From a virus, in IMG/VR virus record IMGVR_UViG_3300048076_000002, positions 1-52,269 of that record: a stretch of DNA of 52,269 bases. The stretch is one strand, 5' to 3'. Positions 2,293-52,269 of this stretch are shown here, piece by piece (position 1 is the stretch's first letter; each line of letters opens with the position of its first letter). Position numbers and translations under genes: made by a program. Below the pieces are notes generated by a model. That model saw nothing but the letters and a program-made list of their open reading frames with translations, searched no databases and was not told where the DNA came from.

Positions 2293-2416
2293 GAGAACGA
2301 CTCCGTGTAAGCGTGTGGCAGTAATAAAGAGACACGCTGCTACACGCAACACCGTAGCAGCATGTCTTTAATCGGCAGACGTTGCATTGTCCGCCAATTA
2401 CATACGGAATGACCGA

Positions 2417-3997
2417 TCAAGCTTTCTTGCTCGCAGCCTTGCCTGCTTTCTTTGAAGCTGCTGGCTTTGAAGCTGCTGGCTTGCCGGGAGTAGGCAGTAC
2501 AGCTTCTGGCACGATCTGTCCAGTCACAGGAGCAGCAGAAGCACCGGCTTCAGGTGCTGCAACAGCGGCAGCAGCACCTTTCTTCGATGACCGTGGCGGC
2601 TTAGGAGCACCACCGTTCAACTCAGCTTCAGCAGCAGCAACGGCTTTCTCAGCGTCTGCTTTGGCTTTCTTAGCCTGGTCAAGAATCGCTTTCTTCGCTG
2701 CTCGATTCTGTTCAGCAACAACCTTAGCAGCTTCAGCAGCTTCAGCAGCTTGAGCCTTGTCAAGTTCGATCTGCTTTTGCCGCTCAACAACAGCCTGAGC
2801 AGAACGCTCGAAGCAGAGTGTGTGCCAGCCCTCGAAAAGTACCGGATCGGTTGAGTAACTGTCTCGTTCTTTCGCAGTCAGCTTGACCTGATTGACAGTA
2901 ACGTCCTTTACGCCAGCCAGGAACAGTCGAAACGCCTTGACGAACGGACCTGCCCACTCAGTATCACGATCCTTTGAGCCTTTCTGAGCGGTCAATTGAT
3001 TCCAATAGCCCGTCAACGCCCACTGGACCGATCCCTTCTCCAGCGATCCACCGACAGCCATGTTGTCAACGAACAGCATCGCCTTGTCGTACTTCTCGGA
3101 ATCAATCTCCATGATTCCATCTTTCGTCTCGACGACGCAAGCAACGTATAGCAACGCTGCGATGTACGACAGAGACATTTTCAGTCCCTTGTTACCGCCG
3201 TCATTCTTGTTGGCGTTCAGTACCATTGTAACAAATTTGCAGAGTTCCGGATGACGTTCGCGAATGAATGTCATCATTTCACTGATGAGAAACTTCGGAG
3301 CACTGGAGACAGTTGCCCCACCTTCGATGAGCCACACCAGGCGAGCAGCACCGGCAAGTGTCGTCGTCCAGGCTTTACGCCCGGCAAGTGTGTTCCATTC
3401 GGCTGGCAGAATTGCGTCAACCCACGGGTCACGAAACAGCACATCGGAGTGCTTACGAGTCTTGCCGATATCAACCGTGTCGGCTGTATCATGCTCGACG
3501 CCATAAATGACGACCGTTGGAATCTCAAGCTGAGCATCCGGCCATTCGTCGGGGTGTTTGGCAACTTCGGCAGCGGCGAGCAGCAGACCTTTCGCCCGGT
3601 GCTGGAGTGATACGCAGTGTTCACCACCTTCCGCGTCTTCGCTCATAATCCACGGCTCACCGTTCAGCTTCCACTGACCGCGAAGGTATTCGTTCGCATA
3701 CAGCTTTGCCAGGCCGAGAGATAACGGACGATTCGTCGAGTTCCACACTTCCATAATCTTTGCCGCAATCTCGACGGTCATCATGACAACCTTGGATCGG
3801 ATGTTGCATTCGTGTGCCGGGATACGACTGATGAATGCCTTGAATGACTGAACTTTCGCAGTCGCCGGAGCAGATGGAACTTTCGTAGCCGCCGGAGCAG
3901 ATTGAGCAGCAGTGTCAGCACCGTAACCGGCAGCAAATGCTTCCGTCTTTGACGCTGACTTAGAGGCTTTTGACGACATTGGAACAAACACAGACAT
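2417..3997 (-). CDS. ParB/Srx-like N-terminal domain protein with Ala/Lys-rich histone-H1-like tail
   Basis: NRPLSLGLAKLYANEYLRGQWKLNGEPWIM...SLQHR resembles the ParB-like NRP...GxW...DGQHR block. The C-terminal ~120 aa are AKKA/PAASK low complexity. Start chosen at ATG 3997 because it is preceded by CCAGGAG. Confidence 0.5.
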   Translation of the reverse strand: MSVFVPMSSKASKSASKTEAFAAGYGADTAAQSAPAATKVPSAPATAKVQSFKAFISRIPAHECNIRSKVVMMTVEIAAKIMEVWNSTNRPLSLGLAKLYANEYLRGQWKLNGEPWIMSEDAEGGEHCVSLQHRAKGLLLAAAEVAKHPDEWPDAQLEIPTVVIYGVEHDTADTVDIGKTRKHSDVLFRDPWVDAILPAEWNTLAGRKAWTTTLAGAARLVWLIEGGATVSSAPKFLISEMMTFIRERHPELCKFVTMVLNANKNDGGNKGLKMSLSYIAALLYVACVVETKDGIMEIDSEKYDKAMLFVDNMAVGGSLEKGSVQWALTGYWNQLTAQKGSKDRDTEWAGPFVKAFRLFLAGVKDVTVNQVKLTAKERDSYSTDPVLFEGWHTLCFERSAQAVVERQKQIELDKAQAAEAAEAAKVVAEQNRAAKKAILDQAKKAKADAEKAVAAAEAELNGGAPKPPRSSKKGAAAAVAAPEAGASAAPVTGQIVPEAVLPTPGKPAASKPAASKKAGKAASKKA

Positions 3998-4068
3998 GAT
4001 TGACACTCCTGGAGTTTTAACTGACTGAACACTTGAGGCAGAAAACATTTCCACCTCGACCTGACAGC

Positions 4069-4097
4069 ATCATTGCAGAATCAAAAAACAGTGTCAA
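4069..4097 (-). promoter_or_regulatory. candidate promoter upstream of the ParB-like gene
   Basis: In minus sense: TTGACA (4097..4092), a 17-nt spacer, then AATGAT (4074..4069). Confidence 0.3.
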
Positions 4098-4105
4098 CTG
4101 AAAAT

Positions 4106-5008
4106 TCAGAATTTTTCAGAATCGAAGGATCTGGACGCACGACGTTGATTCATCATTTGCTGTAAAATACGCCGTCTTTCATCAGATTCAGGATCTTTTG
4201 TGCCGTCCAAATAATTGCTTGTTCGACCACACCAATTGACTCCAGCCGGGCCTATGTGCAAGCATTCAAACGGCGGACGGTGCTTGAGATAAGCTGGCCA
4301 TCGAGCCTGAAAAAACGAGTCAGGTCCGCCAGCGTGCTTCCAGTTTACTTCGTGCCAGGGAGTCTCATGACAGAACTCAGAATCAGCGTGGAATATCTGA
4401 GTGTACCCAGCCCACTCAACTTGCTCTGGATGTAGTGGGTATTGACGCCAATATGCCTCTTTAGGCACTGAACAAGTTGGCGTTGACCCTTCCAGTTCTG
4501 GTGGAACAGCATCAAATCGCAGACCCTCACACATCCGACGTAATGGAGTGTAAAGGCAGTTTGGACTCATCGGCATCGGAAGTTCTGGGGCAGATATAGC
4601 GTTATCAATACCGAGATACCTAATACCTGCCAAGATACTGTCTATCTCAGGGAATTGCCAATTGATCTGCTTTGGCCAGGCAACGTCAGCATCCTGAATA
4701 CACATCCAGCCGTGCCGACCGAACGTTTCCAGTGCCTGCTCCATCGCTCCAAACTTATTGAACATCGCACCGCGATGATAAAACTTGGTCGTCTGATAGC
4801 AATGAGCATCATTAGCAGCCGCACATGCAATTGTGCGATCATCTGACGGCGTTGTAACAATCATCACTTCCTTGTAGTGATGCCGATTGTACGGCAACGT
4901 TAACTCAAGCAAATCACCACAGTCCACACTGACGATGATTGCTCTTAGTACAGGCTTGGCTTTTGAATCGCAAACGACCACGGCAAACTCCCTTCCGGTA
5001 TAGGACAC
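4106..5008 (-). CDS. GT-A-fold glycosyltransferase-like protein
   Basis: IIVSVDCGDLLELTLPYN...IVTTPSDD, GAMFNKFGAMEQAL and the DxD-like IQDADV are arranged as in GT2/GT7-type enzymes. Overlaps the upstream methyltransferase by 64 nt. Confidence 0.55.
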   Translation of the reverse strand: MSYTGREFAVVVCDSKAKPVLRAIIVSVDCGDLLELTLPYNRHHYKEVMIVTTPSDDRTIACAAANDAHCYQTTKFYHRGAMFNKFGAMEQALETFGRHGWMCIQDADVAWPKQINWQFPEIDSILAGIRYLGIDNAISAPELPMPMSPNCLYTPLRRMCEGLRFDAVPPELEGSTPTCSVPKEAYWRQYPLHPEQVEWAGYTQIFHADSEFCHETPWHEVNWKHAGGPDSFFQARWPAYLKHRPPFECLHIGPAGVNWCGRTSNYLDGTKDPESDERRRILQQMMNQRRASRSFDSEKF

Positions 5009-5559
5009 ACACCAAGACAGTCGCCGTACCTACGACGACGGTACTCAACAAAATCGTCAATTGCTTCCTGAATCCCTACGGAACATCCGACTTCACCTGG
5101 AGTAATAAAGTCATGCCCAAACATGTAGCCGCCGGGCTTGATCTTAACCCACCAATGCAAAAGATCGTCAAATACGAATTTCTTCTCATGATTGCCATCG
5201 ATGTACACGAACGACAATGTATTATTAACTGCCTTACCGACAGCTTCAATCGAATGCTCGTAACTCATCAGGCACCGATTTGCATCAATGTAAGACTTTA
5301 GCCGGACGGCTGCTTCCTTACGATGCGTGATCCGATCCACACCACCCCACAGCGTTGCAGCCTGCTTACTGTAATTTTCAGCGTTCTCGTAAGGATCGAC
5401 GCACCGCAAGATTCCATCCCACCCATCGAGCAGAATCTTTGCGTACTCTCCCAAGTGCGTACCAATCTCTACGCCTAGAGATTGGGGACCGCCAAGATTT
5501 TCTTCCATAAGGAAGCGGGGGATATCGTTACGTCCATTGATACCGATGTAGCGAAGCAT
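4945..5559 (-). CDS. class I SAM-dependent methyltransferase (Methyltransf_24/CmcI-like)
   Basis: GVEIGTHLGEYAKILL (SAM-binding motif I) and VYIDGNHEKKFVFDDLLHWWVKIKPGGYMFGHDF. The start context is TCAGGTGACTTATG. Confidence 0.75.
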   Translation of the reverse strand: MLRYIGINGRNDIPRFLMEENLGGPQSLGVEIGTHLGEYAKILLDGWDGILRCVDPYENAENYSKQAATLWGGVDRITHRKEAAVRLKSYIDANRCLMSYEHSIEAVGKAVNNTLSFVYIDGNHEKKFVFDDLLHWWVKIKPGGYMFGHDFITPGEVGCSVGIQEAIDDFVEYRRRRYGDCLGVCPIPEGSLPWSFAIQKPSLY

Positions 5560-5592
5560 AAGTCACCTGACAATTTCTGAGATAGAGAGTTA

Positions 5593-5844
5593 TCAACTCA
5601 AGTCCCCGGCACATAAACCAGCACCACAAGTGCATGGATCACACGTCGGGCACACGTCGTGACCGTGGTCACACTCGATCGCTATAGGCAATTCGATTGC
5701 TCGCCGAAACTTACAGCCTTCTTTGTGATTTCTCCTCACACCGCAACAGCAAGGGCACTGGTGACACACCTTACAAAACACAGACTCCGGCGAAGGGTTG
5801 ATAACAAAGGCATCAAGTCGAGGCGGCGTCACTGGTTGGTTCAT
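5593..5844 (-). CDS. Cys-rich small protein (13 Cys in 83 aa)
   Basis: FCKVCHQCPCCCG...GCKF...ECDHGHDVCPTCDPCTCGAGLC. Overlaps the 3' end of the radical SAM gene by 32 nt in another frame. Confidence 0.5.
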   Translation of the reverse strand: MNQPVTPPRLDAFVINPSPESVFCKVCHQCPCCCGVRRNHKEGCKFRRAIELPIAIECDHGHDVCPTCDPCTCGAGLCAGDLS

Positions 5845-6850
5845 CGCGATATTCCTTTGAAATTCTATGCGGTCTTAAGTCGGTCGAAAGCAAGTAGTCA
5901 ATCACTCGACGGCTGGCGTTACGCTTTGACACAACGTCTGGCTCAGACTGATTCATGTCATCCGGCGTTAATATGTTAAGCGTGTGCCCTATCTTCGGCT
6001 TCAAGTGACTGTAAGATCCATCGTCAACAACAGTGGTTCTGTCGTCAGTATGAGCTAAATCACCTTTACCTCGTAAAGGCACAAGGCAACGCTGGCAATG
6101 ATAGGCTACCTGATTGCGAAACGGCTCGACTTGCATTGGAGCTTTCCACCATCCCGGCGTAACGACCATGCCAGTATCCGGGTAGCTTGGATCAAACTGA
6201 TTGATCATCGCCTGACCGCCAGCAACCTCACAAAAGAATCCCCGAAGCTCATCACGGAACTGACAGATCATTGCTGACCAATGCTTATTGATATCACACT
6301 CTGATATCAGCTTCCATCGATCTGAAGCGTCGGGAACTTGCAACGCTAAGTCGCCGTGTACAGGCGAGTGTAAGCTGTCGCGGTCATGCCCAAACGGTCT
6401 TGACTCTGGCCAGAAATCCTTGAATTTATGGTACGCTTCCACACTCATATGACAATTCAGATTGGAGTGTGCTGGACTGAATGTCTCTCGCATTGCACGG
6501 GCATTGCTCATACTGACTGGATTGTTTGACCAGACACCACATTTCTCTTTAGGGAAGTAATTTCTGAGGATAGCACATATGTCGATGAACTTGGGGTGCA
6601 TCGCTGGATTGCCGCCGAAGATTCCGATAAGCCCGAAGTAACCTTCCATTGACTGACAGGCAAGCTCGAAATTCTCCAGCGTGATGTATGAGGCACGCCC
6701 GGCGAATTGTGATCCTTGCGTACAGTTGCTGCACGCCAAGTCACAGGCACGAGTCAAATGTATTTGCATGACGCCATCCATGCCACCACATTTGCCGGGA
6801 CGGCGTTGACCGGGAGGAACCATTACGCTGAGTGCTTCGTCGATGTTCAT
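5813..6850 (-). CDS. radical SAM enzyme
   Basis: HLTRACDLACSNCTQ contains the CX3CX2C cluster motif. GIFGGNPAMHP resembles the GGEP motif. Confidence 0.75.
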   Translation of the reverse strand: MNIDEALSVMVPPGQRRPGKCGGMDGVMQIHLTRACDLACSNCTQGSQFAGRASYITLENFELACQSMEGYFGLIGIFGGNPAMHPKFIDICAILRNYFPKEKCGVWSNNPVSMSNARAMRETFSPAHSNLNCHMSVEAYHKFKDFWPESRPFGHDRDSLHSPVHGDLALQVPDASDRWKLISECDINKHWSAMICQFRDELRGFFCEVAGGQAMINQFDPSYPDTGMVVTPGWWKAPMQVEPFRNQVAYHCQRCLVPLRGKGDLAHTDDRTTVVDDGSYSHLKPKIGHTLNILTPDDMNQSEPDVVSKRNASRRVIDYLLSTDLRPHRISKEYRDEPTSDAAST

Positions 6851-6875
6851 GTTAACGATCCTGACTGAGAGTGAG

Positions 6876-6885
6876 TGACAGTAAT
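6876..6885 (+). repeat. TGACAGTAAT(CA) motif copy
   Basis: Intergenic. It lies 6 nt after the stop of 6892..7197 and 26 nt before the radical SAM ATG. Confidence 0.9.
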
Positions 6886-6891
6886 CAAATG

Positions 6892-7197
6892 TTAGGATTG
6901 CGTTTCAAGCAAGTGTGCATCTCGAAGACCTCTGGCGTATCCTTGCTCTTCTGCTCGCCTTATGTCTTTTCCACGGCTTGATTGCAACGCACGAATCTCA
7001 CGGTGTAACTCTGTATCATCTTCTCGATACAGTCGTAATCTTTCTTCCAGGTCACGGAGTTCCCTTTCGACATACTGACAAGCTGGTTTTGAGTGCGTGT
7101 ACGGACCAAAGTGATCTGCTGCACTTTGAGTGTCTTCAAATAATTCATCACAGTGAAAGCACTTCCACGGACCTTGACGTTGTGATTCTTCTGTCAT
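6892..7197 (-). CDS. zinc-finger/coiled-coil protein
   Basis: WKCFHCDELFEDTQSAADHF is C2H2-like and is followed by a charged heptad-like segment. Confidence 0.55.
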   Translation of the reverse strand: MTEESQRQGPWKCFHCDELFEDTQSAADHFGPYTHSKPACQYVERELRDLEERLRLYREDDTELHREIRALQSSRGKDIRRAEEQGYARGLRDAHLLETQS

Positions 7198-7214
7198 GGC
7201 TTACTCTCTTTCAA

Positions 7215-8294
7215 CTAAATATGATCCACCACGTACTCAGGCGAATGATTGAAGTTACGCCTGAACATTTCAATATCGTACGCCAGTTTAGATGTGACTT
7301 GTCTATAGTCGTAAAGCAGTGTTGCTCTGTCGGCAAAGAATTTTTGCCGCTCAGGACTATATTTAGCTTCCATCCCAAGAATCACTTCGTCAATTTCCAT
7401 CAACGACATTTCACGGAAGTTAACACGAGTCAGATTCTCGTCGATGCCAGGAATGTACTCGTCGATCGGCAAGTCAGTCAGCACAGCACAACCACAAGCC
7501 GTTGATTCCACAATCTTACGCAAAGCGTACCCATACCGGCTACATGTACAAATAGAGATTTTGAAGCGTGATAGGTGCTGCATGAATCCAGGTGTGTTAC
7601 ATCCTTTACGATGATACCCAGGATGAGGCAGTACAGATGCTGCCAAACCTCGATGAGCCAACAAATGCTGCCGTTCAGGGTACGCATTCGATATTGCACC
7701 GCTGAACAGGCAGCCCTGCCGTCCTTTATCACTGTAGTCGGGTACTTTATCAGCGTCAACAGTGTGCCAGGTCCGAATCAGATGCCCGGCACGAGTGTAC
7801 GGAGCAAGATGATTGACGATGCGGGGATTGTAATAAACGATCCAGCCATGCACGCCCAACTCTTCAGCAGCTTCGCGATGCCACTGTGGCCGCTGTTGAG
7901 CATCTTTCAGTACCGTAAGCCGTAGTATGGCTTTATTATTCCTGAAAGCATCTAAGTTACGAAACTGTGCTTTTGGCTCGCGAAAGTCGCCTTGCGGAAA
8001 CCACTCCCGCTTATCTTGCATGACAACGATACCCGGCTTTACGTCTCTCACAATGAAATGGCAGTCAGTCATACCGCATGGCAGTCCGTACCCGCAGTGC
8101 GTATAACCGGCTTTCGCCAAGCCCGCAGTTATCTGCCAGCCTTCATCTGTCATATGATGCTGCATTGACGCAACACCCAGCACGGCACGACCTGCCATTT
8201 CTGGCTCCGGACAATAAGCAGGCGTCCTGAGTATAGGCGTTTGTTCGAGAGGCTTATTGCTGTCGATTATCTGCTGAATGGTGAGCGGTTGCAT
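7215..8294 (-). CDS. GT-B-type glycosyltransferase (CgeB/Glyco_trans_1_2-like)
   Basis: The C-terminal ISICTCSRYGYALRKIVESTACGCAVLTDLPIDEYIPG fits the GT1/GT4 C-domain. Start moved to ATG 8294 because it is preceded by the conserved leader TCTCAGAAGTTTTCGTCAGG. Confidence 0.6.
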   Translation of the reverse strand: MQPLTIQQIIDSNKPLEQTPILRTPAYCPEPEMAGRAVLGVASMQHHMTDEGWQITAGLAKAGYTHCGYGLPCGMTDCHFIVRDVKPGIVVMQDKREWFPQGDFREPKAQFRNLDAFRNNKAILRLTVLKDAQQRPQWHREAAEELGVHGWIVYYNPRIVNHLAPYTRAGHLIRTWHTVDADKVPDYSDKGRQGCLFSGAISNAYPERQHLLAHRGLAASVLPHPGYHRKGCNTPGFMQHLSRFKISICTCSRYGYALRKIVESTACGCAVLTDLPIDEYIPGIDENLTRVNFREMSLMEIDEVILGMEAKYSPERQKFFADRATLLYDYRQVTSKLAYDIEMFRRNFNHSPEYVVDHI

Positions 8295-8335
8295 GGATGA
8301 GCCTGACGAAAACTTCTGAGATATTAGTACAGCCA

Positions 8336-8503
8336 TTAACTGCGTCGTAAATAAGCAGTCGCTAAATCGCTAAACAGGATAGACAGGAAAGAGCACAGCA
8401 GCGTTTCAGCAGTCATTCTTTCAGCGATAAAGTATGCCGAAAGAAGCAGTAATACAGTTCCAATCACAGCACTAGCCAAAGCATACGTCCGATTCTTATT
8501 CAT
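8336..8503 (-). CDS. small membrane protein (2 predicted TM segments)
   Basis: MNKNRTYALASAVIGTVLLLLSAYFIAE...LLCSFLSILF. Its ATG overlaps the upstream stop as ATGA. Confidence 0.5.
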   Translation of the reverse strand: MNKNRTYALASAVIGTVLLLLSAYFIAERMTAETLLCSFLSILFSDLATAYLRRS

Positions 8504-10059
8504 ATTATTGGTCCTGAATGAGGAAGTGATCTGTACACGTTGTAGCACTCACCGGGGAATGATTTCGCATGAGCGTACCGCGTATCGCTTTCATTACTAT
8601 TCCAGGGATTACCCATCGAAGACTCAATCCCGACATGTTGAGTTAATGAAGGGTTATGAATGAATTCTGACACACTACACTCAGCCAGAGCTCCCAGTAC
8701 AGCACCGTCTAAAGCAACATTCCCTAACTGAGCATCATGACGGCGAGTGATAAATCTCCGGCTCGACAACAGCATTTCCACAACATGATGCCGGAACACT
8801 AAAGCTATAGCACCCCGACCGCGTTGATAACCACTCTTACCTCTGTATGCTTCCATCCATCCCGGCTGACGATCATGGATGATCTCTTCGTTTTCCATAA
8901 ATGTCAATAGATTGATATATGAATTTTGAGGAATTTGAGAAAATAATATGTAGTCTTTCAGTCCCTTCACGCAACGAATATCGTCCTGAAAGACAGCGTA
9001 ATACTCACTCCAGGGGTCAGCTGAATACATGTCCAGTAGTGTGCGATGCCAGTGAAATACAGTTCCCATTCGCGGGTACTGCTTAACTACAGCGAGTACC
9101 TGTTGCAACTTATCGTCATTCAACCTGACCGTGCAACTCTGATCATCTGACGCAAAACTGTGCCGAGACTTGATGCTCACATCAGGAACTAAATCACGAA
9201 AGCATTCCCATGACGACATAAGCGAACTGTCGCTAGCGTTCTGCTGTGGACTGTTTGACCGGCTGAACAGGCTATCCCGATCCAAGTATCCATCCACGTA
9301 CAATGTTATCTTGTTAAACCCACCAGCAGCCAATGACAGTAATGAGGATTTAGTGTAAAATGGATTGTTTGCCCGATCCGGTATCGTTGTCATACCACAA
9401 GTCCAAGTGCCGGGGATGAAAGGCATCTGATTCTTTGGATTTGAATCCCCGCCGTTCCATTCATGCACAAGCTGTTTGAGCCTGTCAAAATGACCCAACG
9501 TATCAATAACACGACGGTGGCACAGATGATTAGCGTGATAACCGTACACTACGCCAGGGATACCAAGCTCGCTTATCTTCCGCTTGAATGCTGCTAACGT
9601 GCCGTCGTGGATACTGCCGACGAGTACACGCTCTGGCGGCACAGGCGGCTTAATATCTGCTTTCTGACCACCACTCAACCAGTTATTCACCCATTCACCA
9701 ACAGCGTTAATTTTCTTCTGTCTTTCTTCACAGTTGCAGGGAGCACCCAGCCATCTGGAGTAGCGTTCCTTAGTGATGCCAAAGAATTCCAATCCTTTGG
9801 CAATCTTATCCCCCCAACCGTCCGGCTCATGAATCACCGTATTGTACGAGGTCTCTTCCAAGTCAATACCTGTGAACTCGCTGTATAACTTCCTGGCCAG
9901 CGTTACTTGACTTGACTGACATTGCAGTCGTCGTGTACCGTCAGCCGACATACTGCCGAAGTATAGTTCAAACCGGCCATCAACGAACCTGGCGAACTCT
10001 GCCCGCTGATCTTCTGCAATTTTACCTAGTGGTACGCGGTCGTTTGCTACGGCAGACAT
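8500..10059 (-). CDS. two-domain glycosyltransferase-like protein (paralog of 10123..11079)
   Basis: The C-terminal half shares the blocks TTIPDR, FQDDIRCV, NLLTFMENEE, ALVF and HNPSLTQHVGIESSMGNPW with the next gene. Confidence 0.55.
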   Translation of the reverse strand: MSAVANDRVPLGKIAEDQRAEFARFVDGRFELYFGSMSADGTRRLQCQSSQVTLARKLYSEFTGIDLEETSYNTVIHEPDGWGDKIAKGLEFFGITKERYSRWLGAPCNCEERQKKINAVGEWVNNWLSGGQKADIKPPVPPERVLVGSIHDGTLAAFKRKISELGIPGVVYGYHANHLCHRRVIDTLGHFDRLKQLVHEWNGGDSNPKNQMPFIPGTWTCGMTTIPDRANNPFYTKSSLLSLAAGGFNKITLYVDGYLDRDSLFSRSNSPQQNASDSSLMSSWECFRDLVPDVSIKSRHSFASDDQSCTVRLNDDKLQQVLAVVKQYPRMGTVFHWHRTLLDMYSADPWSEYYAVFQDDIRCVKGLKDYILFSQIPQNSYINLLTFMENEEIIHDRQPGWMEAYRGKSGYQRGRGAIALVFRHHVVEMLLSSRRFITRRHDAQLGNVALDGAVLGALAECSVSEFIHNPSLTQHVGIESSMGNPWNSNESDTRYAHAKSFPGECYNVYRSLPHSGPII

Positions 10060-10122
10060 AGAGCACCTGACTGAGAGTTAAGCAACACCCGACGACAACT
10101 TCTGAGATAGGAATATATTGCG

Positions 10123-11079
10123 TTAGCTTACATGATCCGTGAGTTTAATCAACTGACATGCATCAAACTCTTCCCCCGGAAATATAGGCGACTGAGGATA
10201 GCGTTTTGTGTCTCGCACGTCAACATCGATTTTCTGCCAATGATTTCCCATCGAACTCTTGATGCCGGTGTGTTGTACCAGTGATGGATTATGACAGTAC
10301 TCTTTCCAGCCAGCACGACGCATCGCTTCAACCACCCCGCCATCTAATGCTCGATATCGCAGTTCCGGGTTCCACAGACGTTTGAGCAAACTTGACTGTG
10401 ACATCAAAGCCACTACAGCCTCGTTGCTAAACACCAAAGCAACGCCACCGTATCCATTCTGGTTAGTCTGTCTCCAGCCGTGCTCTAATTTGTTTGGCCA
10501 TTTATCCTCATTGCCCATGAACGTGAATAGGTTACAGTATCCGTTTTGCGGATACGTGGAATTATCCAAGTAGCTCCGTAGGTTTTTACATAACACTATA
10601 TCGTCCTGGAAAATTGCAAACCGCGTTGCATACGGATCGCGAATGTAAAGTTCGAGCAGTGTCAGCAGCCAGTGACCGTACGTGCGAATGTTAGATTCTC
10701 GAAAGACTGTTGGCAGCTTGTAATTACCGTACAGGTCGCTGTGCGGGCTGTCAACAAAGATGATTGGTGATCCGAATCCGGCTTTTACAAGAGAAGCCAT
10801 TGTACGGTCAAATAAGTCTTTCCTGGACGGCACAGTCGTTATCGCGTACATCCATCTTGGCGGACCTATGTACTTTGGGAGTAAGCCTGATTCCCTGTCA
10901 TTCCATTGAGATAAGTAATCCCGCATTTGATTCGCACTACTCTGCGGGGCACTTATTCGCCGCATCCCATCGCCGGTACGACTGCCCTTCACCGCTCCGG
11001 GTATATGCGTGTAAACCGATCGAAGTAATTCGTCGGCTTCATCGTCTTTCACTTTTCCACAGACAACGAGTTTACTCAT
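10123..11079 (-). CDS. GT-A-fold glycosyltransferase-like protein
   Basis: AITTVPSRKDLFDRTMASLVKAGF, the DxD-like FQDDIVLC, and HNPSLVQHTGIKSSMGNHW. Confidence 0.6.
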   Translation of the reverse strand: MSKLVVCGKVKDDEADELLRSVYTHIPGAVKGSRTGDGMRRISAPQSSANQMRDYLSQWNDRESGLLPKYIGPPRWMYAITTVPSRKDLFDRTMASLVKAGFGSPIIFVDSPHSDLYGNYKLPTVFRESNIRTYGHWLLTLLELYIRDPYATRFAIFQDDIVLCKNLRSYLDNSTYPQNGYCNLFTFMGNEDKWPNKLEHGWRQTNQNGYGGVALVFSNEAVVALMSQSSLLKRLWNPELRYRALDGGVVEAMRRAGWKEYCHNPSLVQHTGIKSSMGNHWQKIDVDVRDTKRYPQSPIFPGEEFDACQLIKLTDHVS

Positions 11080-11082
11080 AAG

Positions 11083-11754
11083 TCACACCGGGCCAATCAA
11101 GGACCATAATGGCGGATGTATCGCATGGTTGATTATTAACTGCCCTCTATACGGCCTGGAAGGGTCAGTGAATATAGGACCGATGGAAGTTGGGTAGCAT
11201 CTGTGATTGACAGTATCGTATTCATTTCTTTCAATCGTCTGAGACGTACCCCGCATCTCTGCAAACAAAGCAAAAGCTGCGGAGCCTATCACAGGACCGT
11301 CAGCCGAATTCCGACAACCACGGAATTCTATCGAACGCTGTACGGTTATGAAGGCATTGAGTGGACCGCCAAACCTGATGCTAAGTTTCTTCGTCACTTT
11401 ATGGTAGCATGTCACATTAGATCCGATATTCGAATCGTACACAGGGTACTCTGTTCCTGTAACAATAGATCCTTCCCAAAAGCATTTTCCTATCCGACCA
11501 ACAAGCACAGCATCCACTTCTGCTTTAGTGACGGTGGCTTGTGGGATTAGTTCGTAATTCCAAAACACAAACGAAAAGTAAGGCGGTGCTACTAAGCAGT
11601 CGCTGCATGTGTCTGCCTTAAAACCCGGTCGAGCACAAACAATACAGTTCTTACTCTCATCGTCAACAAGAATTGTTTCCGCTTTTAACTGATTCGTACA
11701 CAGTCCACGGAACCAATCATCGTCTTCGTTGCTCCAGTAATAGCATCCCATCAT
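11083..11754 (-). CDS. Cys-rich tail fibre/receptor-binding module protein
   Basis: Begins with the module CYYWSNEDDDWFRGLCTNQLKAE...NCIVCA, which is shared with the next gene. Located at the distal end of the tail module. Confidence 0.45.
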   Translation of the reverse strand: MMGCYYWSNEDDDWFRGLCTNQLKAETILVDDESKNCIVCARPGFKADTCSDCLVAPPYFSFVFWNYELIPQATVTKAEVDAVLVGRIGKCFWEGSIVTGTEYPVYDSNIGSNVTCYHKVTKKLSIRFGGPLNAFITVQRSIEFRGCRNSADGPVIGSAAFALFAEMRGTSQTIERNEYDTVNHRCYPTSIGPIFTDPSRPYRGQLIINHAIHPPLWSLIGPV

Positions 11755-12209
11755 TCACATCCAGAAATAGCAACCTGTCCTGGAGAACCAGGAAAATCCG
11801 GTGCAACAGGGGAACACCCGACAGAACATTCATTGCTCGCCAGTACCCATATACCACTAAACTCATCCCATATCCAACTGGAGTAGCCAGTACATCCCGG
11901 AATGCTTCCTGTGCCTGTGGCTTGAGGGGCAACGCATACCGAACAGTTTTTATGATCAAAGGTGGTCGTTGAGTCTGAAGTGAGTTTGTTTCTGCATAGC
12001 CCGCTGAAATGCACGTCTTGTTGGGACCATGACACGCATCCATTCTCGCCTGTTACTTTATCAACAAATGCCGTGCCTACCTGAACTGGATGTACACAAA
12101 CTTCACATGTCTCTGTCGTATTAGCTGCTTCTGCCATCAACTGATTCGTGCATAGTCGATTAAACTTAGTGTCAAAGTTTGACCAGGTGTAGCAACTCAT
12201 GTCTAGCAC
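11751..12209 (-). CDS. Cys-rich tail fibre module protein (two internal repeats)
   Basis: Two internal repeats: CYTWSNFDTKFNRLCTNQLMAE...TCEVCV and CVSWSQQDVHFSGLCRNKLTSD...NCSVCV. The C-terminus resembles that of 12203..13327. Confidence 0.45.
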   Translation of the reverse strand: MLDMSCYTWSNFDTKFNRLCTNQLMAEAANTTETCEVCVHPVQVGTAFVDKVTGENGCVSWSQQDVHFSGLCRNKLTSDSTTTFDHKNCSVCVAPQATGTGSIPGCTGYSSWIWDEFSGIWVLASNECSVGCSPVAPDFPGSPGQVAISGCE

Positions 12210-13327
12210 CCTATGCAGTTAGTCGTCGCTTGCTGCCCTTCAAAGCTGCCGTCATAGTCCGGAAAGTCAGGAGTACCTAATCCTACACAGTTATTATTGA
12301 CGATAGACCACGCCCCGCTTATCCATTCGAATGTCGTTGTTCCGCACGGGCTAGATGTGCCTGTCGGCAAGCAATCGTTATACCCAATCAGAATACCAGC
12401 GTCGTATCCTGCCTGATACCCTTCGCTGTATGAGTTATTCCAGGTTCCTGTGCCTGTAATAATTCCTGTGCCTGTACCTGTGCCGGTTTGAAGCGTGCCG
12501 ACTTGCGAAGTTGATGTGCCTAGCGTTCCGCCAGCATTATTGCAGCCAACATACCAGCCACTAAAATACCCGTCAGCGTAGCCCGCAGCATATGCGGCGG
12601 TAGCGGGATCTTCAGGTATTGTGCCCGTGATGCATAGTTCCAGTTTCGTTTTACCGCCGGACGACTTGTAAAACGTCAGTGTACCGTCCATCGTAACTGT
12701 AGGTGTTACATCCTCGCCGTCCAGATTATACGCTACCAAATCATCCCCAACATCCAGCCGCCAGTAGCTCTGGCCGGACACCTTAGTTAGCGTGTAACTC
12801 CCGGCGGGAAGATGTATCGACCCATGCAACTGATTCTCAATCACATCAGATCCAAATCCGACTACCCACTGTGATGTTGTCTCCACGCCATCAACTACGA
12901 TGTCACCATTATCCAGGCAACTACAACCACACCCGTCAGCAGCAGCAGCCCCGCCGCTACCACTTGGCGGTCGATACTCAGCACCGTACCGCTCAACAAA
13001 TATTATGTCGCCCAGTGAAGCCGAGTAGTTAGTGTGCCGGTTCGTGACAGTAACAATATCTGCGTCAGAGTCTGCCTCTTCCATGTCAAGACTGTCGGAC
13101 AGCACGCCTTGCTTGTATCGACGAATCCTGGCTGTAGTCTGTGTATAGCCTGTCAGATCCCCGGTAGCGGCCGCTAAATCTCCCAGCAGTCTAACGTAGT
13201 AGCCTTCATCTTCACGCTGCAACAACTTCGCATCGTCTGCCGGTCCAGGCTGAAACTTACCGCCGAGCACACGTTGATAGATAAGTGACGCATCCTCAAA
13301 TCTATATACGCCTAATGGGTTACTCAT
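12203..13327 (-). CDS. tail fibre/baseplate protein with Gly/Thr-rich linker
   Basis: 374 aa with GTGTGTGIITGTGTW. The C-terminal CGTTTFEWISGAWSIVNNNCVGLGTPDFPDYDG is paralogous to the end of 11751..12209. Confidence 0.45.
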   Translation of the reverse strand: MSNPLGVYRFEDASLIYQRVLGGKFQPGPADDAKLLQREDEGYYVRLLGDLAAATGDLTGYTQTTARIRRYKQGVLSDSLDMEEADSDADIVTVTNRHTNYSASLGDIIFVERYGAEYRPPSGSGGAAAADGCGCSCLDNGDIVVDGVETTSQWVVGFGSDVIENQLHGSIHLPAGSYTLTKVSGQSYWRLDVGDDLVAYNLDGEDVTPTVTMDGTLTFYKSSGGKTKLELCITGTIPEDPATAAYAAGYADGYFSGWYVGCNNAGGTLGTSTSQVGTLQTGTGTGTGIITGTGTWNNSYSEGYQAGYDAGILIGYNDCLPTGTSSPCGTTTFEWISGAWSIVNNNCVGLGTPDFPDYDGSFEGQQATTNCIGC

Positions 13328-51957: not shown

Positions 51958-52248
51958 CTACTCACCTCGCCCGGAATACACTCTGCCATCCGTAACTACT
52001 TTCCCACTTGGATCAACGTACACGCTTCCGGCCTCGCACAAGCATCCATTCACCGTGACGGTTCGCGGGCCAACGACGTGGATTCCATGAGAGACCAAAT
52101 AGGCGTCGATCGCGGTGGCAACTTCATCACCAGTCATTCTCACATCCACACCAGGCCCGAACTCGGTTGTACCGCTTCCGTATTTTATGACCATTCCAGC
52201 ATCCACAAGCCGCCGCAGAACAAGCCGGTCAACGCGAGCGGCGGGCAT
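51958..52248 (-). CDS. hypothetical protein (96 aa), 5' part lies in the terminal repeat
   Basis: The ORF start at 52248 corresponds to base 106 of the left repeat copy. Confidence 0.5.
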   Translation of the reverse strand: MPAARVDRLVLRRLVDAGMVIKYGSGTTEFGPGVDVRMTGDEVATAIDAYLVSHGIHVVGPRTVTVNGCLCEAGSVYVDPSGKVVTDGRVYSGRGE

Positions 52249-52269
52249 CGCGTCAACCGAGGCGAAGGC
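52143..52269. repeat. Terminal direct repeat, right copy
   Basis: Identical to bases 1-127. Confidence 0.95.

Follow-up and report, generated by a model that had tools for sequence, protein, structure and literature searches.

A nine-gene glycosyltransferase, radical SAM and methyltransferase island behind the putative fibre genes of an uncultured phage, and its possible role in virion glycosylation

What does a phage build with a block of nine genes for sugar and radical chemistry placed directly behind its putative tail fibre genes, and on which acceptor is the product built? The question is raised by the IMG/VR virus record IMGVR_UViG_3300048076_000002, of which positions 1 to 52,269 were analyzed here; this whole stretch of 52,269 nucleotides is referred to as the window. 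A preliminary description, made from the sequence letters, had pointed to nine consecutive minus-strand genes that include glycosyltransferases (GTs), a radical S-adenosylmethionine (SAM) enzyme and a methyltransferase, and this observation is confirmed. The island very probably encodes a pathway of glycan assembly and tailoring. What sets it apart is a radical SAM enzyme of the twitch type that is coupled, in some lineages by gene fusion, to a glycosyltransferase. For the acceptor we put forward, tentatively and as a possibility rather than a settled assignment, the phage's own virion or fibre proteins. A further reading, of low probability, would make the product the first radical-SAM-tailored virion O-glycan, carried on (Gly-Thr)n fibre repeats and widespread in uncultured phages.

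Positions 1-127 of the window are identical to positions 52143-52269, and from this terminal overlap of 127 bp we take the window, at 52,269 bp, to be a complete genome of a phage, either assembled as a circle or terminally redundant. An independent sequencing run holds an identical contig of 52,162 bp. Matches to PHROGs identify a large terminase, a portal and a major head protein, and Pfam matches elsewhere in the genome identify a family A DNA polymerase, an AAA_24 ATPase, a ClpP-like protease and a small terminase. Between 31.7 kb and 0.6 kb nearly all genes lie on the minus strand. Read in that direction, the terminase, portal, protease, head and tail genes come first; next are the genes for an 813-aa tape-measure-like protein and gp359 and the three putative fibre genes (13327-11083), followed by the nine-open reading frame (ORF) island (11079-4106) and a 545-aa gene. 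The island occupies ~7 kb, or 13% of the 52-kb genome.

All nine minus-strand ORFs of the preliminary description are present, and an independent gene caller repeated the nine calls on the identical contig, with products of 318, 519, 55, 373, 101, 345, 83, 204 and 291 aa. The genes are tightly packed, as had been noted: gp318 begins 3 nt after the last fibre gene, the largest intergenic gap is 63 nt, and several neighbors overlap by 1-37 nt. These ORFs are real rather than chance occurrences because gp318, gp373 and gp345 have 460, 435 and 481 homologs, respectively (metagenomic proteins in a large protein database, E<=1e-3), and gp83 belongs to a family of 374 representative clusters. A sequence scan found no terminator-like site at the junction of the fibre genes with gp318 or at the gene boundaries inside the island; the weak five-pair terminator-like matches on the coding strand fall within genes, and shuffled sequence yields at least as many. 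Overall counts of promoter and terminator sites also did not exceed those of shuffled sequence, and the scan served otherwise to note the promoter-like site and the hairpin on either side of gp545. No membrane segment was found in any of the six enzymes, in which no 19-residue window reaches a Kyte-Doolittle (KD) value of 1.6, and all six are predicted to be soluble.

The core of the module is gp345 (5813..6850, minus strand), which its Cys motif and structure model identify as a radical SAM enzyme of the twitch type, with a predicted partial TIM barrel and C-terminal auxiliary-cluster domain. The motif CDLACSNC, on which the radical SAM call of the preliminary description was based, is present at residues 36-43. 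Its CX3CX2C signature (C36/C40/C43) is invariant in 45 sequences, as are five more Cys residues, C92, C185, C207, C252 and C255, and most of the 481 homologs contain PF04055. The gp345 model (pLDDT, the predicted local distance difference test score, 88.5) retrieved SpeY chains as its top four Foldseek matches (E=4e-7, 270-285 columns, target-normalised TM 0.54-0.59), followed by anSME and BtrN; together with the invariant signature and PF04055 in the homologs, this SpeY-like model upholds the radical SAM call. SpeY acts as a radical SAM dehydrogenase of the twitch type in the biosynthesis of spectinomycin, and SpeY, BtrN and HygY perform sugar oxidation, epimerisation or dehydration-type chemistry on glycosides. 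The spacing of C185, C207, C252 and C255 in gp345 resembles that of C169, C188, C232 and C235 in BtrN, which we take to be the auxiliary-cluster ligands of that enzyme. A profile search of PDB sequences with gp345 gave no significant match. A role in 7-deazaguanine formation of the QueE kind was considered and rejected: its sole support was a weak N-terminal profile match (E=0.055), and no other genes of the queuosine pathway were found.

The partner of the radical SAM enzyme is gp300 (4106..5008, minus strand), a candidate GT2-like glycosyltransferase of the GT-A type. The FNK (residues 83-85) and DAD (106-108) motifs reported for it are present and are invariant or nearly so in 38 homologs, among which D56, K85, D106 and D108 do not vary. 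Against PF13704 (Glyco_tranf_2_4), gp300 itself scores 17.1 bits (gathering cutoff 27.5); the family matches 11 of 38 gp300 relatives at E<=0.01 (best E=3e-5), and other GT2 families match too. A weak profile match between gp300 and mannosyl-3-phosphoglycerate synthase aligns the DxD motifs of the two proteins, and PDB sequence searches with gp300 returned nothing significant. The PF13704 matches of the relatives and the invariant DxD suggest that the enzyme first described as GT-A-like is GT2-like.

Using the radical SAM gene as an anchor, we retrieved 73 IMG/VR loci that contain the cassette, many of them incomplete; the preliminary description had proposed a search for synteny in related phages. 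A gp300-like gene accompanies the radical SAM gene in 59 of the 73 loci, a Methyltransf_24 gene in 35, a GT-B-like gene in 31 and a member of the GT-A family in at least 26. Fusion proteins join GT-A to radical SAM (P0291), radical SAM to a gp300-like domain (P0349) and radical SAM to an Anp1-like GT (P0358 and P0356). Because of the co-occurrence in 59 of 73 loci and the fusion proteins, we regard the radical SAM and GT2-like pair as the functional core, around which other GTs, methyltransferases and nucleotide-sugar enzymes are exchanged. Other lineages add a UDP-glucose/GDP-mannose dehydrogenase, a cytidylyltransferase or a LicD-like protein, and further variants include a two-domain GT32+GT2 enzyme, a plain GT2 and more methyltransferases. 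The suggestion that the genes form one pathway is thereby strengthened, through synteny in dozens of loci and through gene fusions. All gp359-lineage phages with enough downstream sequence carry a GT-A gene after the fibre genes, but only some of them carry the radical SAM core. In a close relative, L032 (4792-7154), the stretch from the fibre genes to the GT-A gene encodes another radical SAM enzyme of smaller size (261 aa; PF04055, E=3e-9) and a 482-aa protein that contains a phosphoribosyltransferase domain (E=1e-5).

No match was obtained when the island was compared with deposited phages by BLASTN or when gp318, gp373 and gp300 were compared with 50,697 deposited phage genomes by TBLASTN, and gp345 found one remote N-terminal match only, a cyanophage "radical SAM maturase." As far as these searches reach, the module is widespread in uncultured phages and is not seen in deposited phage genomes. 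The preliminary description had allowed that the block might already be characterised in known phages; neither a deposited-phage match nor a description of this gene combination in literature searches was found.

The island opens with gp318 (10123..11079, minus strand) and its paralog gp519 (8500..10059, minus strand). Their paralogy, 40% identity over 191 aa (E=5e-39), had been read from the shared blocks FQDDI, ALVF and HNPSLxQHxGIxSSMGN, which are common to both proteins; FQDD and HNPSLxQH are retained in gp519. At least 460 metagenomic proteins make up the gp318 family, all named "hypothetical," and no Pfam family matched at E<=0.01 among 40 members. An N-terminal domain of ~70 aa is part of gp318, for which an AlphaFold model was built with 40 homologs (pLDDT 86). 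Searched against the PDB with Foldseek, the model gave as best matches POMGnT1 (5ggi, E=2e-8), Mimivirus R655/R699, GnT-I, the LH3 GT domain and ColGalT1. There were 152 PDB matches at E<=1e-3; among the matches listed, almost all are GT-A glycosyltransferases and some are nucleotidyltransferases of the same fold. The DxD-type triplet Q158-D159-D160 and residues H263 and H270 of gp318 are invariant, QDD having been checked in 40 sequences including gp519. Among the predicted viral structures of BFVD, the second-best match is Ardmore gp87 (E=9e-9), a protein whose sequence family is annotated as glycosyltransferase in mycobacteriophages of clusters F, O and C. A TET-associated DNA glycosyltransferase domain also occurs among the structural matches of gp318, at rank 30. 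Single-sequence and profile searches of PDB sequences with gp318 found nothing significant, whereas the predicted structure was informative. The predicted fold and the invariant QDD agree with the proposal of two GT-A-like paralogs, and by the model gp318 and gp519 are GT-A-fold glycosyltransferases of an unannotated family.

The longer N-terminus of gp519 carries the N-domain in duplicate, together with a CxCxxR module at aa 108. This Cys module (G..C.C..R....N, aa 85-130 of gp519) is a separate 76-aa ORF in the related locus L001 (10702-10932), and it also forms an N-terminal extension in many GT-A homologs. More distant GT-A homologs (24-31% identity), often in tandem pairs, are found on large chromosomal contigs of Planctomycetota and Verrucomicrobiota metagenome-assembled genomes (MAGs) (L009-L031). 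These sequences are a hint that the host belongs to the Planctomycetota or Verrucomicrobiota. No homolog of the radical SAM enzyme, gp300, the GT-B-like enzyme or the Methyltransf_24 enzyme lies near any chromosomal GT-A homolog. In L015, the sole chromosomal locus that was annotated, the GT-A homolog has genes for Ser/Thr kinases and for a GDSL lipase as neighbors and is not part of a glycan cluster.

A further candidate for sugar transfer is gp373 (7215..8336, minus strand), described at first as a GT-B/CgeB-like enzyme. Among its 435 homologs, PF13524 (Glyco_trans_1_2), a family for the C-terminal, CgeB-like half of GT-B proteins, matches 13 of 40 relatives at E<=0.01, and one of them, P0161, reaches the gathering score (26.1, with a cutoff of 25). 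The gp373 of the window has no PF13524 match of its own, and a profile search of PDB sequences with it found nothing. It carries the motif RKIVESTACGCAVLTD, which resembles what is presumably the C-terminal E-A-x-A-x-G donor-binding motif of GT-B enzymes. These family-level matches favor the GT-B/CgeB-like reading of gp373 as a candidate glycosyltransferase. The profile and structure searches proposed in the preliminary description support the glycosyltransferase assignments, by Pfam at the level of families for gp300 and gp373 and by Foldseek for gp318. The class I SAM methyltransferase, gp204 (4945..5559, minus strand), was correctly recognized and belongs to Methyltransf_24 (Pfam E=1.5e-11); it is probably a sugar O-methyltransferase. 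A second Methyltransf_24 family in relatives shows a faint match to rhamnosyl O-methyltransferase (RMNT_CmcI).

Where the cassette lies bears on its acceptor. In 40 of the 46 loci with enough upstream sequence, it lies behind genes of the same orientation, two or more of which are ORFs of at least 350 aa. Upstream of the cassette in L001 are genes for a tail terminator, a pectate-lyase-like tailspike and a tail-like trimer protein, and the downstream genes are on the other strand. In L232, a tape measure gene is followed by tail genes and the pair of radical SAM and gp300-like genes, and then by convergent helicase genes. The cassette in both L001 and L232 closes the tail block and converges on replication genes. 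In the window, the preceding gene block includes gp374 (12203..13327, minus strand), a putative tail fibre and candidate acceptor in which aa 281-288 (nt 12464-12487) form a (Thr-Gly)4 repeat. The Thr/Gly-rich stretch seen in this 374-aa protein at the outset contains 13 Ser/Thr in 30 residues, with TGTGTGTG at aa 281, and the (Thr-Gly)n repeat is kept in gp374 homologs of 35-46% identity. In 25 of 77 loci, proteins encoded upstream of the cassette show a (G[TS])3+ pattern; they belong to ~20 unrelated families.

The virion is favored as the acceptor because of the placement of the cassette at the tail end, the solubility of the enzymes, the kinship to viral GTs that glycosylate virions and the (Gly-Thr)n stretches of the fibres; by sequence, virion proteins are only moderately preferred over envelope or DNA. 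According to PMC12363180, which cites Freeman 2023, the mycobacteriophages Che8, Corndog and Myrna (clusters F, O and C) glycosylate their virions. From the predicted folds and the motifs, synteny, fusions, solubility and position, we infer the radical SAM chemistry, the order of steps and the acceptor of the following scheme. The island would be expressed together with the tail and fibre genes, at the distal end of their block, and would act as a cytoplasmic pathway, in which gp318, gp519 and gp373 might initiate or extend the chain and gp300 would place a sugar on the acceptor. Hydrogen abstraction by gp345 from a carbinol carbon of the sugar could then lead to a keto-sugar, to epimerisation or to dehydration, and gp204 would O-methylate the glycan. 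The best candidates for the acceptor would be the adjacent fibre proteins with (Gly-Thr)n stretches. Progeny would carry a methylated, modified O-glycan, by which adsorption, stability or recognition could change.

Several observations weigh against virion glycosylation as set out here. The cassette lies beside a dCTP deaminase gene in L231, among small genes in L233, and after genes for RusA, a sliding clamp and a DNA methylase in L234. None of 120 sampled IMG/VR loci with a (GT)4 coding pattern contained the cassette, and members of the gp359 lineage bear the repeat whether or not they have the radical SAM core. In the window, gp300, gp345 and gp373 all score below Pfam gathering scores, and the glycosyltransferase assignments of gp300 and gp373 are those of sequence-based candidates. 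Similarity of GT-A folds does not tell acceptors apart, the TET-associated DNA glycosyltransferase domain being one of the matches, and both glycan and acceptor are predictions. As for the repeat itself, (Gly-Thr)n runs of 3-5 units, which may be either linkers or sites of glycosylation, are found in fibre-region proteins of many unrelated families, and (GT)4 is frequent in IMG/VR generally (at least 120 matches). The repeat as a specific acceptor was rejected: it is enriched upstream of the cassette, but the reverse comparison, a search for the cassette near (GT)4 loci, failed, and in the gp359 lineage the repeat does not track the radical SAM core. It is retained only as a lead.

The main rival to a virion acceptor is DNA: the GTs could glycosylate a modified base as a defense against restriction, with the radical SAM enzyme making the functionalised base or tailoring a DNA-linked sugar. 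DNA-glycosylating phage GT-A and GT-B enzymes are widespread, and their neighborhoods are enriched in ParB-like and dCMP-deaminase genes (bioRxiv 10.1101/2023.12.21.572611; PMC13326640). The weakly ParB-like gp545 beside the island, the dCTP deaminase next to the cassette of L231, the replication genes around that of L234 and the TET-associated domain among the structural matches of gp318 all fit such a role. However, most lineages have the cassette at the end of the tail block, and the gp345 model fits glycoside and cyclitol dehydrogenases best. Among non-structural ORFs of at least 200 aa, no Pfam match to thymidylate synthase, TET/JBP or C5-methyltransferase was detected, eight such ORFs being unannotated so that a divergent enzyme is possible; in addition, ~65% of the GT-bearing viral contigs in one survey lack a base-modification partner (bioRxiv 10.1101/2023.12.21.572611). 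We consider DNA hypermodification unlikely, and consider improbable its bolder form, in which the radical SAM and GT2-like pair would be the core of a new hypermodification route that needs no thymidylate-synthase or TET-type enzyme and the variable GTs and methyltransferases would build DNA glycans. Remodeling of the host envelope, by which altered glycans of lipopolysaccharide (LPS), capsule or a surface glycoprotein would block superinfection or keep progeny from re-adsorbing to debris, is a fairly unlikely alternative as well. Variant cassettes contain enzymes of a kind known from the making of surface polysaccharides (Caps_synth/GT32, LicD, cytidylyltransferase and UDP-glucose dehydrogenase), and distant GT-A homologs sit on chromosomal contigs of Planctomycetota and Verrucomicrobiota MAGs. 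Yet the island has no flippase, polymerase, polyprenyl-phosphate GT, GtrC-type or other membrane enzyme; the GT-A homolog of L015 lies outside a polysaccharide cluster and lacks the radical SAM core, and the chromosomal homologs have no module partners nearby. Lysogenic conversion is unlikely because no integrase was detected in the genome.

Two further rivals dispense with a large acceptor. The enzymes are soluble, and the closest structural relatives of gp345 act in aminocyclitol and aminoglycoside biosynthesis, as would suit a soluble small molecule or nucleotide sugar, for example a modified sugar or pseudo-oligosaccharide, made with no macromolecule decorated. This reading is quite improbable, given that no aminotransferase, cyclase or exporter is present, that the variable, modular GT content is more typical of glycan decoration and that the cassette is associated with tail genes. 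Most improbable is the maturation of a Cys-rich peptide to a glycosylated ribosomally made peptide with post-translational modifications (RiPP) of the glycocin or sublancin type, an idea suggested by gp83 (5593..5844, minus strand). The 13 Cys counted in this 83-aa ORF are confirmed, its gene lies between those of the radical SAM enzyme and the methyltransferase, and radical SAM and GT enzymes mature peptides in other systems. However, gp83 is missing from all 76 related cassette loci in which the radical SAM gene is conserved. Its family, with no Pfam domain, shares the scaffold C-x2-C...CPVxIECEHGYDVCPxCDPCTC; because it has nine invariant Cys plus a His, we regard it as a folded metal-binding scaffold rather than a variable core peptide, and gp83 is probably a small metal-binding phage protein inserted here.

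The other two small ORFs show the same distribution: in the 76 related cassette loci, there is no homolog of gp101 (6892..7197, minus strand) or gp70 (8336..8548, minus strand; 55 aa in the other gene call). With gp83, gp101 and gp70 outside the conserved module, the Cys-rich glycopeptide idea therefore fails. The gp101 ORF, which has a CxxC...H...H pattern, had been labeled C2H2-like; its Pfam zinc-finger match is insignificant (E=0.03), and the label is dropped in favor of a lineage-specific insertion. An unrelated 73-aa ORF sits in its place in L034. For gp70, introduced as a peptide with two transmembrane segments, a hydrophobic segment is indeed present (KD19 2.23), the only one in any ORF of the island, but its Pfam match is insignificant and it too is a lineage-specific insertion. 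We return, then, to virion glycosylation as the favored, still tentative, account of the island.

The remaining two putative fibre or adhesin genes, gp223 and gp152, lie directly upstream of the island (11083..12209, minus strand) and follow the genes for the 813-aa tape-measure-like protein and gp359; neither product matched a PHROGs family. The three putative fibre genes have in common a Cys module of 40 aa, GCYxWSxxDxxFxxLCxNQL...CxVCxxP, with one copy in gp223 and two or three in gp152, and the C-terminus of gp374 resembles that of gp152. On the far side of gp300 is gp545 (2417-4054, minus strand), which belongs to PHROG 5931, of unknown function. It had been called ParB-like; the name finds weak support in 25% identity to a single protein annotated with a ParB-like nuclease domain (E=5e-5), and there is no Pfam or PDB match. 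The gp545 gene follows the cassette in close relatives and is on the opposite strand in more distant ones. It is preceded by a promoter-like site between gp300 and gp545 (4069-4097, minus strand; 10/12 match, extended -10 TG), and directly 3' of it is a hairpin with a 15-bp stem and T-rich tail (2330-2367, minus strand). The sole plus-strand block of the genome (32620-39645), made up of small ORFs that lack family matches, probably represents the early region. The genome as a whole has no tRNA genes.

To our knowledge, virus-encoded virion glycosylation has been shown in a few systems only: some mycobacteriophages, chloroviruses and mimiviruses. If our reading is true, it would reach a large, uncultured group of phages from the environment, possibly ones with hosts in the Planctomycetota or Verrucomicrobiota, and a radical SAM sugar-tailoring step would be added to viral glycobiology. 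Two protein families that have no Pfam model, or sub-threshold Pfam matches only, come into view, the gp318 GT-A family and the radical SAM-linked, GT2-like gp300 family; their fusions and synteny are ready for experimental work. Should the acceptor instead be DNA, the island would represent a new hypermodification chemistry with a bearing on restriction evasion and on the sequencing of environmental phages.

Among known systems, the virion glycosylation of the mycobacteriophages Che8, Corndog and Myrna is similar in that phage-encoded, soluble GTs place a glycan on the phage's own proteins, the acceptor being the inferred one in the case of the island, and gp318 is structurally close to Ardmore gp87. 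The likeness is structural: TBLASTN with gp318, gp373 and gp300 revealed no sequence homology to the family of Che8 gp110 and Corndog gp38. The host phylum also differs, the hints for the island being to Planctomycetota or Verrucomicrobiota, and the island is set apart by its place after the fibre genes and by a radical SAM enzyme as its conserved core. Mycobacteriophage glycosylation loci reportedly include a methyltransferase, and we know of no described virion-glycosylation locus with a radical SAM enzyme. Giant viruses likewise use virus-encoded, host-independent cytoplasmic GT-A enzymes together with sugar O-methylation, with which they modify surface proteins of the virion, and the Mimivirus fibril GTs R655/R699 are among the top PDB matches of gp318. 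The chlorovirus PBCV-1 protein A064R combines two GT domains and a methyltransferase domain. These viruses infect eukaryotes, however; their sequences are unrelated, and they lack a radical SAM step.

The sugar hypermodification of phage DNA, as in the glucosylated hydroxymethylcytosine (glucosyl-hmC) of T4, the arabinosyl-5-hydroxycytosine (arabinosyl-5hoC) of RB69 and DLP3 and the TET-associated GTs, also involves clustered GT-A and GT-B genes, sometimes near ParB-like or nucleotide-metabolism genes. It differs in its base-hydroxylating or hydroxymethylating enzyme, for which Pfam gave no match when the non-structural ORFs of at least 200 aa in the island's genome were searched, and neither of the cited papers on DNA glycosylation mentions a radical SAM enzyme (bioRxiv 10.1101/2023.12.21.572611; PMC13326640). 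For gp345, the closest parallels are SpeY, BtrN and HygY. It shares with them the full-length fold of SpeY, the CX3CX2C motif and four or five invariant Cys in the C-terminal half that are spaced like an auxiliary-cluster site, and, as with SpeY and HygY, its gene is coupled to that of a glycosyltransferase. Unlike these enzymes, with which it has 12-14% identity, gp345 is encoded by a phage and belongs to a family whose members are, in some lineages, fused to a glycosyltransferase.

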